A stretch of DNA of 64,000 bases from Escherichia phage PECP20, in the sequence record OQ873415.1; one strand, given 5' to 3'. Positions 8,241-62,378 of this stretch are shown here, piece after piece. Within the stretch, counting starts at the first letter, position 1. Every line of letters begins with the position of its first letter. A program made the translations under genes and the position numbers. The notes beneath the pieces are model-generated. The model was not told where the DNA came from and ran no database searches. It was given only the letters and a program-made list of their open reading frames with translations.

Positions 8241-8312
8241 ATTGTTCTCCTCTTGAGTAAGTAAGAATATCTTAACATAGTTTTTAGTGGATGTAAACTC
8301 TAGAAACGAAAA

Positions 8313-8334
8313 AAGGAATCCCGAAGGATTCCTT
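8313..8334 (-). terminator. intrinsic terminator-like UUCG hairpin after soc
   Basis: Minus RNA AAGGAAUCC-UUCG-GGAUUCCUU followed by UUUUCGUUUC; 8 nt after soc stop. Confidence 0.5.
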
Positions 8335-14073: not shown

Positions 14074-14139
14074 AATGTTTTCCTCTTGGTTGGTGTAAGT
14101 TCATCATATCATGCCTAGAGGAAGATGTAAACCCCGAAA

Positions 14140-14155
14140 GGAGACCGAAGTCTCC
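14140..14155 (-). terminator. UUCG-tetraloop hairpin just after gene 41
   Basis: Minus RNA GGAGAC-UUCG-GUCUCC then UUUCGGGG; followed by GTTTAC promoter-like hexamer. Confidence 0.4.
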
Positions 14156-14161
14156 TTTTTA

Positions 14162-15613: not shown

Positions 15614-15955
15614 TTAAAAGAATTTAAATTTTTTCTTGGTCCGTTCATTAAAAGCTTGTTGTACTTGCATTGTAACACATTTTTCAACATGTGGTGCAAG
15701 TTCTGCTTTTCTGTCCTGGTCAAGAACTGCAAAGTCCATTACGATTTTACCATCAACCCAGTCTAGTTTTGTAATATAGACTATATGATGAGAACCATCT
15801 TCAAGTGTAATCAGAATCTCTTGAATGACATTTTCCATTGCTGAACGGATAATTTTAAGAGATTCATTAAACACTCGTTCTTTGCGAATGTCTTCCCCTT
15901 CCGAAGAAGGGGATTCATCAACGATTTCTAGATTTAAATCATCGAGATTATTCAT
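15614..15955 (-). CDS. hypothetical protein in the gene 40 position
   Basis: In-frame ATG (MNNLDD) at 15955 overlaps uvsX stop by 8 nt; track start 16075 would sit inside uvsX. Confidence 0.5.
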   Translation of the reverse strand: MNNLDDLNLEIVDESPSSEGEDIRKERVFNESLKIIRSAMENVIQEILITLEDGSHHIVYITKLDWVDGKIVMDFAVLDQDRKAELAPHVEKCVTMQVQQAFNERTKKKFKFF

Positions 15956-21281: not shown

Positions 21282-22951
21282 TGATGAGTGATATCGCCGC
21301 CGATTGGACGATAGGAAACACCAGTTTCTTTATCAGTTAGTACCCATTTACCAGGATTTTTTGTAATCAGAGTAGCCGTTACAGGTTCTGCTACGTCATA
21401 ACTAATAGAGCCGTCTTGAAGTACACGGCCCATGTTACGTAATTGCTTAGTCAGAAGTTCCATACCTTTATAATATGCGGCAACCGCTTTAAGTGGATTA
21501 TTCTTGAAATAACCACCTAATGCAATCCAGATAATTGCTACTGCCAAATGATGATACTCGTTAAACGAACTCATCTTTCCATATTTGTAAACTAATGGAT
21601 TGATGTTAATAGTCAAATTACAAGTTGTTTCATCAATAGTAAACTGACCCCAGGTCGGATTAGCATTGAATTCATCATAACCTGAAACAGCATAAAGCAC
21701 TTTAGCTTCATCATACAATTTTGGCCCGTAAATCTTGGTTTCACCAAAATATCCACGAGGGTCGATAAACTTGACTTCGCCGTTATCGGTAATCATAGTA
21801 TTACTGAAGTTCGGGTCACCATGAATAACAGAGTACTGTCCCTGAGAACGGTTATGATAACGAATAAGATGTTCTAAAGCTTGTTTCAACATTGGCTTCA
21901 GACGTCCAATCTTAGTGTAGTTCACATGTGTGATTTTACCAAATGAATCAATCAATGGCTGAATGCTTTCACAACGATCAATAACTTTCGTATAGAACTC
22001 TTTAGTGAAATCACGGCGAACAGTTTCAGGACTTACAAAATAAGTGTCCGTGCTGAATTTCAGTGCATCTAAAATTGCATCAACAATTTGTGGACGAGCA
22101 AGACTTGATTTGGATTTAATATATTCAAATGCCGGCTTACCTTTAATACGTTCCATTTCAAAATTATTTTCATTTACCGAAACTAACTGAGGAACTGAAT
22201 CTGATTTCACTTTCAAATACCATGAAATCTCATCTTTTTGAAGAGCTCGACCTTGTTCGGTTAACGCGAATTTAGTTACAGTTTCTTCGCCAATTTCAAC
22301 TGCATTAAAACTACGATTCAGTTCACGAACTTCATGAGCCTTTTCAAGTTTAGGCATATCACCTAAATCAATTAGATTCATAAGCTCTGATTTATTGAAT
22401 GCACTGCCGTAAAGGAATTCTACGAAATCACGACCTTTGCAGTATTCGTGAATTTCCTCATCAGTAGAACCCATGTAGAATTCCCAGTCTTTGAACTGAT
22501 AAATTCCTACAACATTACCACCTGTTGAACCTACGTTAGTGATATTTTCACCATCGAAATTATATCGACATTCATCACCCTTAACATAGATTGCGTTAAC
22601 ATTCCAAGACCATGAACCAAAGTCAGGAATAATATCACACCAGTTAACAATTACGTTATGGCCATCTAAATCTTTGTATAATTTAGCAAGAGCATAAGCA
22701 GAACCATACGCTTCATCAACTGTACGAATAGTCACATTGAACCCTTCTTGCTCGCAATAAGCTCGAACAGTTTCAGCAAATTTTGAATGAACTACTACAA
22801 TAATTTCATCTGCGCCAAGGTCAGAATAAATTGTATACAAATTGCTCAGAATAGTGTCTTGTTTATAGTTAACAAGCACCTTAGGAATATGGTGAGTAAT
22901 TGGATATAAACGAGTTGCTAATCCAGCACCAAGAATAACAGCTTTTTTCAT
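21266..22951 (-). CDS. bifunctional sugar-1-phosphate nucleotidyltransferase / APH-type sugar kinase
   Basis: 561 aa; N-terminal MKKAVILGAGLATRLYP (RmlA-like); C-terminal HGDPNFSN...IDPRG (aminoglycoside/choline-kinase-like). Confidence 0.8.
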   Translation of the reverse strand: MKKAVILGAGLATRLYPITHHIPKVLVNYKQDTILSNLYTIYSDLGADEIIVVVHSKFAETVRAYCEQEGFNVTIRTVDEAYGSAYALAKLYKDLDGHNVIVNWCDIIPDFGSWSWNVNAIYVKGDECRYNFDGENITNVGSTGGNVVGIYQFKDWEFYMGSTDEEIHEYCKGRDFVEFLYGSAFNKSELMNLIDLGDMPKLEKAHEVRELNRSFNAVEIGEETVTKFALTEQGRALQKDEISWYLKVKSDSVPQLVSVNENNFEMERIKGKPAFEYIKSKSSLARPQIVDAILDALKFSTDTYFVSPETVRRDFTKEFYTKVIDRCESIQPLIDSFGKITHVNYTKIGRLKPMLKQALEHLIRYHNRSQGQYSVIHGDPNFSNTMITDNGEVKFIDPRGYFGETKIYGPKLYDEAKVLYAVSGYDEFNANPTWGQFTIDETTCNLTININPLVYKYGKMSSFNEYHHLAVAIIWIALGGYFKNNPLKAVAAYYKGMELLTKQLRNMGRVLQDGSISYDVAEPVTATLITKNPGKWVLTDKETGVSYRPIGGDITHQWERI

Positions 22952-26520: not shown

Positions 26521-26548
26521 TTAATTTCCTTTAGACGAGTTATTGTCT
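26521..26548 (-). promoter_or_regulatory. gene 43 translational operator (hairpin with AAUAACUC loop plus SD)
   Basis: Minus RNA AGAC-AAUAACUC-GUCU-AAAGGAAAUUAA-AUG; loop matches the T4 gp43 operator loop as recalled. Confidence 0.55.
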
Positions 26549-26580
26549 TTTGTTTGTTGATGAACTTATTATACTCCAAA

Positions 26581-26600
26581 TGGGACCGAAGTCCCATTGC
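26581..26600 (-). other. stable UUCG-tetraloop RNA hairpin between regA and gene 43
   Basis: Minus RNA AAUGGGAC-UUCG-GUCCCAUU directly after regA stop; followed by TATAAT hexamer. Confidence 0.5.
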
Positions 26601-28500: not shown

Positions 28501-28575
28501 GTAATTTTCCTCATTATCATTAATCTGGAGGATTTCTCCTCCATAATCGTACTACATTAAACGTAAAGCTTTGTC

Positions 28576-31665: not shown

Positions 31666-31916
31666 ATGTATTCTCTTCGAATGAAGTCCTCTACATATTT
31701 TAACATGTCATTTCTATCAGCAAAATATTCATCTAGTTCTGCATACATAACAACACCTGGTGCGTACTCACAGGTAACATACATTGTTCCAAAGAAACGA
31801 GGAGTTGATTCCTCGTAATTCTCAGTCCATTCAACGATACCAATATAACCGTCGCCAATACTAAATTCGTGACGATGGATTTCATAGTCAGTCTTCGTCA
31901 TTATACGCATCCTCAA
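31662..31916 (-). CDS. hypothetical protein (46.1 position)
   Basis: 84 aa ORF, 4-nt overlap with gene 46. Confidence 0.55.
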   Translation of the reverse strand: MRMRIMTKTDYEIHRHEFSIGDGYIGIVEWTENYEESTPRFFGTMYVTCEYAPGVVMYAELDEYFADRNDMLKYVEDFIRREYI

Positions 31917-33161: not shown

Positions 33162-33212
33162 ATTATTTCCTCATTAGTTAATTCATTCTATCATCCGTTT
33201 ATAAAGCAAAAA

Positions 33213-33232
33213 AGGAACTCCGAAGAGTTCCT
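33213..33232 (-). terminator. intrinsic terminator-like UUCG hairpin upstream of gene 47
   Basis: Minus RNA AGGAACUC-UUCG-GAGUUCCU followed by UUUUUUGCUUUAU. Confidence 0.5.
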
Positions 33233-33401
33233 ATCCACATAGTACACCGTACAGAGGCTCATTTGAACTTTTAAATCGAATGGGCTTGTACGTAATAGTT
33301 CCTTCGGCTTTAGCTTTATCATAAGACTCTTTAAAACGTCTCATTCTTTCTGCTTTGCCTTTACGGATTTTATCGAAATTTTCAGAAGTCGGGATGTTCG
33401 T
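33231..33401 (-). CDS. small hypothetical protein (about 57 aa)
   Basis: Hand-translated ORF (MTNIPTSENFDKIRKG...) ending at the hairpin; below track cutoff; coordinates approximate. Confidence 0.3.
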   Translation of the reverse strand, partial: TNIPTSENFDKIRKGKAERMRRFKESYDKAKAEGTITYKPIRFKSSNEPLYGVLCG

Positions 33402-33443
33402 CATGCATAAGCACCTCTCAGAAAATACCTAAATCGATTTCTC

Positions 33444-36603: not shown

Positions 36604-36610
36604 AAGTACC

Positions 36611-36859
36611 TCAGAGGTTGATTGATACAATGCGTTTGATAAAATTCACTTCACTTACTGAAAGGTCTTTAAGACCGATTGATTCTAAACGCTGAGTAAG
36701 CGTCAACATTGGGATATAGTCCCATTGAGTTTTAGACATTTGATAAGTACGAACGCCATTAGCAATTTCAACATGCAAATCTGAAATGGTAACGAATACC
36801 GGTCGCTCATCATTAACTTTAAGGGTTAGAACAACTTTCTTTGAATCTAAACTAATCAT
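36611..36859 (-). CDS. hypothetical protein (82 aa)
   Basis: ORF. Confidence 0.5.
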   Translation of the reverse strand: MISLDSKKVVLTLKVNDERPVFVTISDLHVEIANGVRTYQMSKTQWDYIPMLTLTQRLESIGLKDLSVSEVNFIKRIVSINL

Positions 36860-38611: not shown

Positions 38612-40425
38612 TGGTGTTTAACCCTATGCATGATTTCTTTATTTTTACCGAGATTAAATCCGCGTTCGTTCGGATTTCCCAAATAACCGCATGTCCTTCT
38701 TATAGTGTTCATCTTTTTAGGATCAGTTTCTCCACAAACTGAACAAACAAATCCGTTTTCAGTAGGAGTCATTTCATGAGTACTTCCACACGTAAAACAT
38801 TTATCTACTGGCATATTAACACCAAAATAATCTAAATGTTGTGCAGCATAATCCCACACGGCCTCAAGACCTTTTAGGTTATTTTTCATATCAGGAAGTT
38901 CAACATAAGAAATGTGACCACCTGTCGCAATGAAATGATATGGCGCTTCACGAGAAATCTTTTCAAACGGAGTAATATTTTCTTCTACTGAAACGTGGAA
39001 ACTATTAGTGTACCAGCCTTTATCGGTAACATCTTTTACGCTTCCATATTTTTCTGTATCAAGTTTACAGAAACGATAACACAAGTTTTCAGCAGGAGTA
39101 GAATATAAACTAAAAGCAAATCCAGTTCTTTCGGTCCACTGTTTAAGATGAGCATTCATTTTAGTTAAAATTTCTTGCCCAATATCACGACCGACAAGAA
39201 TATTCAATTCGTGAATACCAATGTATCCCAAAGACACTGAACTTCTACCGTTTTTAAATAACTCAATTATATCGTCGTCAGGTTTAAGACGAACCCCAAA
39301 TGCACCTTCTTGGTAAAGAATAGGAGCAACAGTCGCTTTAACTCCTTTTAAGGAACTAATTCTACACATCAAGGCTTCAAAGCACAGATCCATTCGTTCA
39401 TTAAATAACTCAACAAATTTCTGTTCATTGAACTGTGTTCCAATATAAGAATCTAACGCGATGCGAGGAAGATTCAGTGTTACAACACCGAGATTATTAC
39501 GTCCATCAAGAATTTCATTACCAGTCGAATCTTTCCATACACTCAAGAAACTACGGCAACCCATTGGAGAAACTGGAACTGAAGAACCAGTAATAGCTTT
39601 ATTATTCTTAACCGAAATAATGTCAGGATACATTCTTTTGCTTGCACATTCTAACGCAAGTTGTTTAATATCATAGTTCGGATCATCTTTATAAAGATTA
39701 ACACCTTCTTCAACAAACATAACAAGTTTAGGAAAAATAGGAGTTATTCCATCACGACCAAGACCTTTAATCCGATTTTTCAGAATTGCTTTCTGAATCA
39801 TTCGTTCGGTCCAATCAGTTCCAGTACCAAATGTAATTGTTACAAAAGGCGTTTGCCCGTTTGAACTAAAAAGAGTATTTACCTCATACTCATAAGCTTG
39901 AAATGCGTCATATACATCTTTTTCTGTTTTAGATTGAGCATAATTCAGAATGTCTGGTATTTGCCATTTTTCTGCATCTTCAACATGTTTAGCGTATGTA
40001 CGTTTAACATAAGGAGAAAGAACTTTATCGACATTCGCAAATGTAGTTCCGCCGTACTGATGTGAAGCAACTTGTGCAGTAATTTGTGCCATAATTGCAG
40101 TAGCAACACCAATCGATTTAGGCGTTTCAATTTGAGCATTGCCCAATTTAAATCCGTTCTCAAGCATCCCCTTTAAATCGACTAAACAGCAATTGGTAAA
40201 CGGAAGAGCAGGAGAATAATCAATATCATGCATGTGGATAATTCCACTTTCATGCGCATTCATAATAAAAGACGGGACCATATTTTTGGCAATGTGCTTA
40301 GACACAATACCAGCCATAAGGTCCCGTTGAGTTGGAAAAACACGAGAATCTTTATTAGCATTCTCGTTCAAAAGATCTTTATTAGTTTTATAAATTAATC
40401 CTTCAATTTCTTTTTCAATTTTCAT
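38608..40425 (-). CDS. nrdD: anaerobic ribonucleoside-triphosphate reductase (glycyl radical enzyme)
   Basis: 605 aa; C-terminal glycyl radical motif RRTCGYLG and Zn-ribbon cysteines. Confidence 0.95.
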   Translation of the reverse strand: MKIEKEIEGLIYKTNKDLLNENANKDSRVFPTQRDLMAGIVSKHIAKNMVPSFIMNAHESGIIHMHDIDYSPALPFTNCCLVDLKGMLENGFKLGNAQIETPKSIGVATAIMAQITAQVASHQYGGTTFANVDKVLSPYVKRTYAKHVEDAEKWQIPDILNYAQSKTEKDVYDAFQAYEYEVNTLFSSNGQTPFVTITFGTGTDWTERMIQKAILKNRIKGLGRDGITPIFPKLVMFVEEGVNLYKDDPNYDIKQLALECASKRMYPDIISVKNNKAITGSSVPVSPMGCRSFLSVWKDSTGNEILDGRNNLGVVTLNLPRIALDSYIGTQFNEQKFVELFNERMDLCFEALMCRISSLKGVKATVAPILYQEGAFGVRLKPDDDIIELFKNGRSSVSLGYIGIHELNILVGRDIGQEILTKMNAHLKQWTERTGFAFSLYSTPAENLCYRFCKLDTEKYGSVKDVTDKGWYTNSFHVSVEENITPFEKISREAPYHFIATGGHISYVELPDMKNNLKGLEAVWDYAAQHLDYFGVNMPVDKCFTCGSTHEMTPTENGFVCSVCGETDPKKMNTIRRTCGYLGNPNERGFNLGKNKEIMHRVKHQ

Positions 40426-47975: not shown

Positions 47976-48051
47976 TTCGTTTCGATAGGTCTATAGTATC
48001 ATATCCTAAAAGCATGTACACTACTTTTTAAAAATATTTTGACCCCCTAAA

Positions 48052-48067
48052 GGGACCCGAAGGTCCC
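48052..48067 (-). terminator. UUCG-tetraloop hairpin downstream of 48145..48333
   Basis: Minus RNA GGGACC-UUCG-GGUCCC with flanking G/C and U tracts. Confidence 0.45.
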
Positions 48068-48144
48068 CACATTTACTTATCGCACTTAGCAACATAATTA
48101 GGCATATCACAGAATACGGAGCGTGTAACTACTCGACCCTTTGA

Positions 48145-48333
48145 CTATGCTTCAGTTGCTTGTCCGGCAGTGCTATTAATATAGCTCGATTTGATATTCT
48201 CAATACCCTGAGAATGTGATGCATTTACCGAACCGTTGGAAGGCCCAGAAGACTGGTTACCACCAGCTCCTGTGGTAGCACCAACAGAGAATGCCATCAT
48301 TACTGCGAATAAACCAATTGCTAATTTTTTCAT
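48145..48333 (-). CDS. small secreted protein (62 aa)
   Basis: Signal-peptide-like N-terminus followed by Gly/Ser/Asn-rich region. Confidence 0.55.
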   Translation of the reverse strand: MKKLAIGLFAVMMAFSVGATTGAGGNQSSGPSNGSVNASHSQGIENIKSSYINSTAGQATEA

Positions 48334-50545: not shown

Positions 50546-50681
50546 TTTACCATACTCGTTTCAATAAGATTCACTATGCCGTTTACCATGTTATAAGTAA
50601 ACATCGGATAATTGTATTGTACTACAACATAAGCGATAAGCAAAAGTTTCATTTTGTTCTCCGTTCGTTTTGGTAGGACTA

Positions 50682-50710
50682 CTATAACATAGTCCTACCA
50701 AGATGTAAAC
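50682..50710 (-). promoter_or_regulatory. early-type promoter with -10 inside a 9-bp-arm palindrome
   Basis: GTTTAC-N17-TTATAG; plus-strand ggtaggact-N10-agtcctacc. Confidence 0.35.
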
Positions 50711-55377: not shown

Positions 55378-55591
55378 AAGGAATTTCCTCATCGGTGGCA
55401 AGGTCATATTCGACCAATTGGATAGGCTCATTAATACCATATCCACGTACAGTGATATCAGTTGCCGGATAGTTTCCAGTAATATCACCCATTCTAAATG
55501 CTTCAATGAATGATTGCTCGCCTGAGCAACTAAACCAGGCGGCAAAACATTTTAAAACATCTTCAGACCCTTCTATAATCAATTTAGCCAT
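55367..55591 (-). CDS. hypothetical acidic protein (74 aa)
   Basis: ORF. Confidence 0.5.
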   Translation of the reverse strand: MAKLIIEGSEDVLKCFAAWFSCSGEQSFIEAFRMGDITGNYPATDITVRGYGINEPIQLVEYDLATDEEIPYVD

Positions 55592-60752: not shown

Positions 60753-60810
60753 AATATTCTCCTCATGTTTTAATAGGACTACTATAACATAGTCCTATCA
60801 GTTTGTACAC

Positions 60811-62328: not shown

Positions 62329-62378
62329 TTGTTTTGATAGGACTACTATAACATAGCCCTATCTTGTTGTAAACTGTT

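Follow-up and report, generated by a model that had tools for sequence, protein, structure and literature searches.

The hairpin that follows soc in the genome of Escherichia phage PECP20 has a GC-rich stem and a four-nucleotide UUCG loop, and the same design recurs at other sites along the same strand, mostly between genes. The question raised by this locus is what such hairpins do for the transcripts that carry them, in particular where the stem is followed by no run of U residues. The window analysed here is a stretch of 64,000 nucleotides (sequence record OQ873415.1). It comes from a T4 relative, an RB69-like Mosigvirus, as judged from a 1.2-kb probe around the 8313 site, which matched Tevenvirinae phages; the best match was Escherichia phage OLB35 (99.2%), and phage G2469, at 96% to the same probe, is classified in Mosigvirus, within the RB69-like group. 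Comparison with T4 by tblastn confirmed the gene names soc, 56, 41, 40, uvsX, 43, regA, 44, 45, 47, a-gt.3, nrdC.10 and nrdC.11. Nearly all long open reading frames of the window lie on the minus strand, so that a loop reading CGAA on the plus strand is UUCG on the transcript.

The initial annotation, made from the sequence, had listed at least five sites and proposed to collect further ones with the motif GGNNNNCGAANNNNCC. This regular expression failed as a search tool, with only 2 matches, a number equalled in 19 of 100 shuffles and hence not significant, and a structure-based enumeration was used instead, in which perfect-stem tetraloop hairpins were collected on both strands and the family was cut off at a TTCG loop on a Watson-Crick stem of 6 pairs or more. 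Across the whole window six C(UUCG)G hairpins with perfect stems were found on the minus strand: at 8313..8334 after soc (stem 9), 14137..14158 after gene 41 (stem 9), 15894..15913 inside gene 40 (stem 8), 26579..26598 after regA (stem 8), 33213..33232 after a-gt.2 (stem 8) and 48051..48068 between nrdC.11 and nrdC.10 (stem 7). All five annotated sites were thus present with their UUCG loop on the minus transcript, and the one within gene 40 had been missed. The annotated limits were exact at 8313-8334 and 33213-33232; 14140-14155 is the core of the longer hairpin after gene 41, and 26581-26600 was shifted by 2 nt.

The same enumeration gave only two weak TTCG hairpins on the plus strand, none of them comparable. 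In 200 dinucleotide-preserving shuffles of the window the mean number of TTCG-loop hairpins was 0.085 and the maximum 2, against the six observed, which rules out a chance origin. Among the 13 tetraloop hairpins of the minus strand whose stems have 7 or more pairs, 5 have UUCG as their loop, and 6 of the 8 CTTCGG hexamers on that strand lie inside the six hairpins. A C-G pair closes the 4-nt loop in all six, and 4-5 of the 7-9 pairs in each stem are G-C. All lie on the sense strand and five are intergenic. Four of them (soc, gene 41, regA and the a-gt.2 homologue) have a stop codon within 7 nt of their start, beginning 3-7 nt past it or overlapping it. The hairpin at 48051, which is 76 nt past the nearest reading frame, does not lie just after a gene. 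A promoter element is found downstream of five of the six.

What divides the family is the tail. We took at least 5 U in the 8 nt directly 3' of the stem as the U-tract criterion for an intrinsic terminator. The soc and 33213 hairpins have 6 U in this interval, those of gene 41 and regA have 3, and those of gene 40 and 48051 have 2, so that the name of intrinsic terminator applies to two of the six. This division into sites with U tracts and sites with no U-run agrees with what had been annotated, and a sequence scan for terminators on the minus strand flagged the same two of the six hairpins. By nearest-neighbour calculation the isolated hairpins have free energies of -11.1 to -13.5 kcal/mol, and all six appear in both the minimum free energy and the centroid folds of segments of about 60 nt. 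Folding z-scores with flanks included are modest (-0.7 to -2.5). In ViennaRNA the UUCG loop gains only about 0.4 kcal/mol over AAAA, and the extra stability attributed to UUCG therefore rests on published measurements. A search of the whole window against Rfam gave no matches at gathering thresholds.

The phenomenon itself is the CUUCGG hairpin family of T4, known since Tuerk et al. (1988, PNAS 85:1364) and met here in an RB69-like relative. The discovery of UUCG tetraloops in T4 mRNA dates from 1988, and they proved extraordinarily stable (PMC4371310); CUUCGG hairpins are described as abundant in T4, predominantly intergenic and able to stop reverse transcriptase in PMC8948821, which cites Tuerk 1988. 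The hairpins of the window are like those of T4 in their loop, closing C-G pair, sense-strand location and mostly intercistronic position. A scan of the whole T4 genome, in which stems of 6 or more pairs were accepted, gave 20 C(UUCG)G hairpins, all on the sense strand: 18 belong to the minus strand, where they lie between genes or within genes of that strand, and two to the plus strand, where they come after the plus-strand late genes 23 and 37. In 13 of the 20 the hairpin starts at -8..+7 nt relative to a stop codon. A tail with 5 or more U in its 8 nt is present in only about 7 of the 20, so that most of the T4 family is without a U-run. T4 has a UUCG hairpin at the orthologues of five of the six window sites (soc, gene 40, regA/43, a-gt.2 and nrdC.11/10), and the T4 and window stems differ by compensatory changes, as after soc, where T4 has GGACUCC and the window GGAAUCC.

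At an additional site, between genes 45 and 44, the window has the minus-strand hairpin UGGAGGA-GAAA-UCCUCCA (28526..28543), with a GAAA loop in place of the UUCG loop found in T4 (31899-31914). Stable tetraloop classes appear, from these sequences, to have been interchanged at this orthologous position.

Conservation was followed in a wider sample of IMG/VR loci, for which RegA, Soc, gp41, gp47 and the nrdC.10 homologue served as queries and from which the orthologous hairpins were extracted. Orthologues occur in related phages for all six hairpins, and the loop is mostly UUCG at four of the sites. Covariation was counted formally at two sites, gene 43 and gene 40, with 500 shuffles each. At the gene 43 site 99.2% of the stem positions are paired, 6 of the 7 pairs have changed on both sides, and the score is 0.664 against 0.183 for shuffled alignments (0/500 as high), with controls slid along the sequence scoring no more than 0.235. 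At the gene 40 site, where all positions are paired and all 7 pairs show compensatory changes, the score is 0.956 against 0.232 (0/500); its alignment has constant anchor flanks, and the statistics exclude an alignment that mixes non-homologous sites. The best hairpin in each search window was selected by script, against a background of only 0.046 hairpins per 55-nt window, so that this selection does not explain the hairpins found in 31 of 46 gene 40 loci. The hairpins are conserved by structure, with stems that covary and a loop that is kept at most sites. The sense-strand location of all six members here and all 20 in T4, together with the covarying stems, also bears out the earlier supposition that they act on the minus-strand transcript.

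The two sites with U-tracts are the simplest to read. The soc hairpin (8313..8334, minus strand) has the form AAGGAAUCC-UUCG-GGAUUCCUU, begins 7 nt past the soc stop codon and is followed directly by UUUUUUCGUUU. A UUCG hairpin with a U-tract is present in 20 of the 21 soc loci, in 8 distinct hairpin sequences. An early-promoter-like site, TTTACA-N17-TAAGAT with TG (8269..8297, minus strand), lies just downstream, and gTTTACa follows the hairpin in 12 of the 20 loci. The 33213..33232 hairpin had been placed before gene 47; it does lie upstream of that gene and is better described as overlapping the TAG stop codon of a 57-aa a-gt.2 homologue (33231..33404), after which comes UUUUU. Its T4 orthologue, with matching flanks, is 38715-38734. 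Judged at the level of sequence, both hairpins are canonical intrinsic terminators, as had been suggested; conservation supports the call at soc, where the U-tract is kept, the a-gt.2 site having too few orthologous loci for such a judgement.

Directly after the U-tract at 33213 comes TGCTTTA (33202..33208, minus strand), which resembles a MotA box of a middle promoter, with TAGAAT 11 nt beyond it (33185-33190, minus strand). The MotA box consensus is established T4 knowledge (reviewed in PMC2988021), and the arrangement of hairpin plus GCTTTA is also seen at T4 38715, 36607 and 5381. In T4 the a-gt and mobB module is bracketed by two such hairpin-plus-MotA-box cassettes (T4 36607-36626 and 38715-38734); the window has one cassette, at 33202-33232, and is without a-gt and mobB. 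This suggests that the module was gained or lost by recombination between cassettes.

Intrinsic terminators of T4 consist of a GC-rich stem, a 4-nt loop and poly(U), and two of them lie within the 5' ends of the mobE and segF coding sequences (PMC2988022). The soc and a-gt.2 hairpins match this pattern for E. coli and T4 terminators, whereas the defining U-tract is missing at the other four. UUCG loops are reportedly over-represented in E. coli terminators, a finding ascribed to d'Aubenton-Carafa et al. in 1990.

Among the sites without a U-run, the hairpin of gene 41, the helicase gene (14137..14158), begins 3 nt past the stop codon and has the tail UUU-CGGGG. An early-promoter-like site, TTTACA-N17-TATGAT with TG (14103..14131, minus strand), abuts this tail, and the junction cggggTTTACA or gggTTTACA is conserved in relatives. 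A hairpin is present at 23 of 46 loci, with UUCG in 17 of the 23, covarying stems, 12 distinct sequences and a full U-tract in 13 loci. T4 is without a UUCG hairpin here; T4-type phages have a different inverted repeat that is embedded in the promoter, an element of PeSL type placed right after gene 41. Read on the plus strand (14137-14158), the hairpin of the window is followed by UUUUUAUUAAAAUUUU, and it could also stop antisense transcription on that strand as a bidirectional terminator.

The hairpin at 48051..48068 lies between the nrdC.11 and nrdC.10 homologues and has the tail UUA-GGGGG. The reading frame that precedes it by 76 nt encodes 62 aa (48145-48333), comes after nrdC.11 and is absent from T4. 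A hairpin is found in 8 of 19 orthologous loci (6 distinct sequences), seven with UUCG and the eighth with CUAG, and -35-like boxes lie downstream of it in relatives. The T4 orthologue, 55414-55433, has UUUUUAUUU. At both this site and that of gene 41 the orthologues in relatives often carry full U-tracts, and the two hairpins of the window are probably degenerate or leaky terminators and not a separate class.

At the regA/43 site the hairpin (26579..26598) begins 3 nt past the regA stop codon, occupies the -35/-30 region of the gene 43 promoter and has the tail UGGAG. The TATAAT -10 box of that promoter (26568..26573, minus strand) comes 5 nt after it. Because this box is downstream of the hairpin, transcripts from the gene 43 promoter do not contain it; only transcripts coming from regA do, and the hairpin can therefore act only as their 3' element. 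It is found in 42 of 43 T-even-like loci, in 18 distinct sequences, with UUCG in 34 of the 42. The other loops (GAAA, UACG, UCCG, UUAC, CGUG) are mostly other stable tetraloops, and two relatives have G(UUCG)C in place of C(UUCG)G. In 28 of the 42 loci the distance between hairpin and TATAAT is no more than 22 nt, other loci having an intervening TGCTAT MotA-like box, and the hairpin stays beside TATAAT even where an extra reading frame has been inserted after regA. A DNA cruciform or MotA-box role for the loop at this site, part of which resembles GCTTC, was considered and set aside, since the spacing varies between lineages (13 vs 15 nt) and some of the others possess a TGCTAT box of their own.

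In many relatives (loci L008-L018, L022, L023, L026 and others) a reading frame begins at the regA stop codon (TAATATG) and lies between regA and the hairpin; such small extra frames, of which the 62-aa frame after nrdC.11 in the window is another example, are found between a conserved gene and its terminal hairpin, the hairpin staying with the downstream promoter. Upstream of gene 43 there is also the minus-strand hairpin AGAC-AAUAACUC-GUCU (26533-26548), which matches the 16-nt RB69-type translational operator described in the literature as the binding site of DNA polymerase gp43.

The gene 40 hairpin (15894..15913), UCCCCUUC-UUCG-GAAGGGGA, is the one member of the window inside a coding sequence. 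Gene 40 overlaps the end of uvsX, and the hairpin lies in the 5' part of the frame, at about codons 15-21 and 34 nt past the uvsX stop codon. It has no U-run; its tail is AGACAUUC, and the T4 equivalent is AGAAGAAA, with 0-2 U. The hairpin is present in 31 of 46 loci at a constant offset from the start of gene 41, in 14 distinct sequences, and compensatory changes, some of them synonymous, have kept it in T4-like phages that are very divergent. Between T4, with arms UCCCCCUC/GAGGGGGA, and the window, the change is both compensatory and synonymous. The loop is variable (UUCG in nine loci, and UCAG, GGAA, GAAG, GAAA, UAAG and others), and a 99% relative (locus L107, about 391-410) has UUUG, which is a Ser-to-Leu change; a UUCG loop is therefore not essential at this site. 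In many lineages the two arms encode a semi-conserved peptide, SPSxEGE, so that RNA structure and protein sequence are mutually constrained. The view that the hairpin is a by-product of the conserved peptide is only partly true, as unrelated stems persist where the peptide differs.

It is at this site that published data on RNA ends bear on the function of the family. Kim et al. (2025, PMC12152347, citing Hinton 1989) describe the 358 bp that precede gene 41 in T4, where an in vivo 3' end of RNA falls directly behind a stem-loop; the same text reports more RNA ends at this stem-loop in rho mutants and a factor, GoF(D25Y), that raises RNA stability and acts post-transcriptionally. In a review, 3'-end formation upstream of T4 gene 41 is thought to reflect RNA decay and protection and not simple termination (PMC2988021). 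Our scan of this T4 region gave UCCCCCUC(UUCG)GAGGGGGA (-15.9 kcal/mol, T4 22329-22348) as its sole substantial stem-loop, and this is the orthologue of window 15894-15913. We infer that the stem-loop with the mapped 3' end is the C(UUCG)G hairpin of gene 40. The initial annotation had regarded the sites lacking a U-run as possible stability or processing elements, and had named transcript 3' ends that do not map near the hairpins as a result against its proposal. For one such member, in T4, a 3' end does appear to lie there, this being the only T4 orthologue with a mapped end; on the other side stand the full U-tracts in relatives at the gene 41 and nrdC.11/10 sites. On all three points, the strand on which the hairpins act, termination at the two sites with U tracts and a stability or processing role at the rest, the evidence agrees with the annotation. 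A literature search for a genome-wide T4 3'-end map or T4 Term-seq found nothing relevant.

We consider it quite probable that the hairpins are RNA-level elements of transcript boundaries, serving as terminators where a U-tract follows and, where it does not, combining weak or no termination with a block to exonucleases. Each element would be a short perfect stem with a C(UUCG)G cap, encoded on the sense strand where a transcription unit ends, in most cases with the next promoter directly downstream. With a U-tract present (soc, a-gt.2) it would bring about Rho-independent termination; with the tract short or absent (gene 41, gene 40, regA/43, nrdC.11/10) termination would be weak or none. The hairpins without a U-run would then block 3'-to-5' exonucleases, so that transcripts cut or ended downstream are trimmed to a defined, stable 3' end, while the downstream genes would be served by polymerases that read through and by the adjacent promoter. 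Genes of one operon would in this way come to differ in dosage, as with uvsX versus 40/41, or 45-44-62-regA versus 43. The existence of the hairpins, their enrichment, strand, placement by stop codons, covariation and association with promoters are observed; the exonuclease barrier with read-through is the mechanism that our analysis would assign to the four sites without a U-run. Two of these four, after gene 41 and at nrdC, could instead be decaying terminators with little function in PECP20, given the U-tracts in many relatives.

REP elements in E. coli operons provide a precedent, as intercistronic hairpins without a U-tract that shield the upstream mRNA from 3' exonucleases and set differential expression. 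REP elements are repeated sequences of about 35 bp and are bound by host proteins, whereas the hairpins described here are 18-22 nt long, share no common stem sequence and rely on the tetraloop.

Of the alternatives, the one that survives best holds that all six hairpins are intrinsic terminators or attenuators, with 3' ends made by release of RNA polymerase and no special role for exonuclease trimming. The full U-tracts at gene 41 and nrdC orthologues, in relatives and in T4, are what one would expect from it, as are the three U after the 14137 stem and the two to three after the 48051 stem, and in T4 the weak mobE terminator, whose poly(U) is short, still ends about 30% of transcripts (PMC2988022). 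The tails argue the other way. That of gene 40 and its T4 equivalent have 0-2 U, that of regA/43 is UGGAG, and with the G-rich tails (CGGGG, AGGGGG) the RNA:DNA hybrid would be stronger and release hindered; it is because the tails are G-rich or purine-rich that a purely terminator-based explanation is weakened. In addition, T4 RNAs with the gene 40 3' end vary in abundance with the rho allele and with a factor that acts post-transcriptionally (PMC2988021, PMC12152347). We think this alternative unlikely.

A second alternative takes the hairpins to be primarily DNA-level recombination cassettes for the insertion, deletion or swapping of modules, with any RNA function secondary. The model would be the PeSL cassettes of T4-like phages (Arbiol 2010; Comeau 2014), in which a stem-loop terminator or attenuator is combined with an early sigma-70 promoter in intergenic regions with insertions and deletions of small reading frames, and for which shuffling is documented (PMC2839356, PMC4122927). 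There is a partial likeness, in that early-promoter-like sites follow the soc and gene 41 hairpins and in that hairpin-plus-promoter cassettes of our family flank variable content, such as the extra frames after regA and the a-gt/mobB module with its two cassettes in T4 and one in the window. However, a PeSL usually has its stem-loop over the -35/-10 boxes or between them and is conserved in sequence over the whole cassette of about 100 bp, whereas here the hairpin precedes the promoter, the loop alone is conserved and two sites have MotA-type promoters. Stems differ between sites and lineages with little homology beyond CTTCGG, one member lies within a conserved gene (gene 40), and the strand bias and compensatory changes point to selection on the RNA fold, which a role in recombination does not explain. 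We regard this alternative as highly improbable. The window does contain repeats that match known PeSL cassettes: three copies of an inverted repeat, TAGGACTA-TGTTATAG-TAGTCCTA (50674-50697, 60774-60797 and 62338-62361, minus strand; 0 expected by chance), the loop of which resembles a -10 box.

That the hairpins are folding nucleation points or insulators shielding regulatory mRNA structures (the gene 43 operator, RegA/RegB targets) from mispairing, a nucleation role suggested by Tuerk et al. as summarised in PMC4371310 and favoured by the position of the regA/43 hairpin some 30 nt upstream of the operator at 26533-26548, is scarcely credible, because gene 43 transcripts from the TATAAT promoter lack the hairpin and most family members have no operator nearby.

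Two intergenic hairpins without a U-run have a further peculiarity in their tails. The 3' arm is followed by UUUC-GGGG at gene 41 (14128-14141) and by UUUA-GGGGG at nrdC.11/10 (48041-48054), both on the minus strand. Apart from the loops themselves, a regular-expression search of both strands gave no further occurrence of this UUUC/A-GGGG shape in the window, and it is absent after the hairpins of T4; in relatives it occurs at three non-homologous sites (loci L019, L020, L024, L030, L142, L143, L150 and L178-L181). The G-run can pair with the 3' arm, far more weakly than the main stem does. Such a tail might disable termination, or might be a relic of slippage.

We offer tentatively, and as unlikely to hold, a joint proposal for gene 40 and the G-run tails. 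The gene 40 hairpin would be a conserved checkpoint of 3'-end formation and decay that sets the ratio of uvsX to the gp40/gp41 helicase and is the target of the Rho(nusD) and GoF effects, and the G-run tail would be a built-in anti-termination feature or a switch by alternative pairing. As an anti-termination feature, the strong distal hybrid would keep the hairpin as a protector of the 3' end and force read-through.

In summary, the hairpin family of the window adds no new principle. What may be new is the conservation by covariation of a hairpin within the gene 40 coding sequence, and the UUUC/A-GGGG tails. The structurally conserved gene 40 hairpin provides a defined target for the effects of Rho and GoF on T4 middle mRNA levels, and the G-run tails offer a testable idea for how a terminator hairpin may be converted into a read-through stabiliser. 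The transcript-boundary hairpins behind the discovery of the UUCG tetraloop are kept by structure, not by sequence, across T4-like phages, and they can for this reason serve as reliable markers when transcription units are annotated in new phage genomes.
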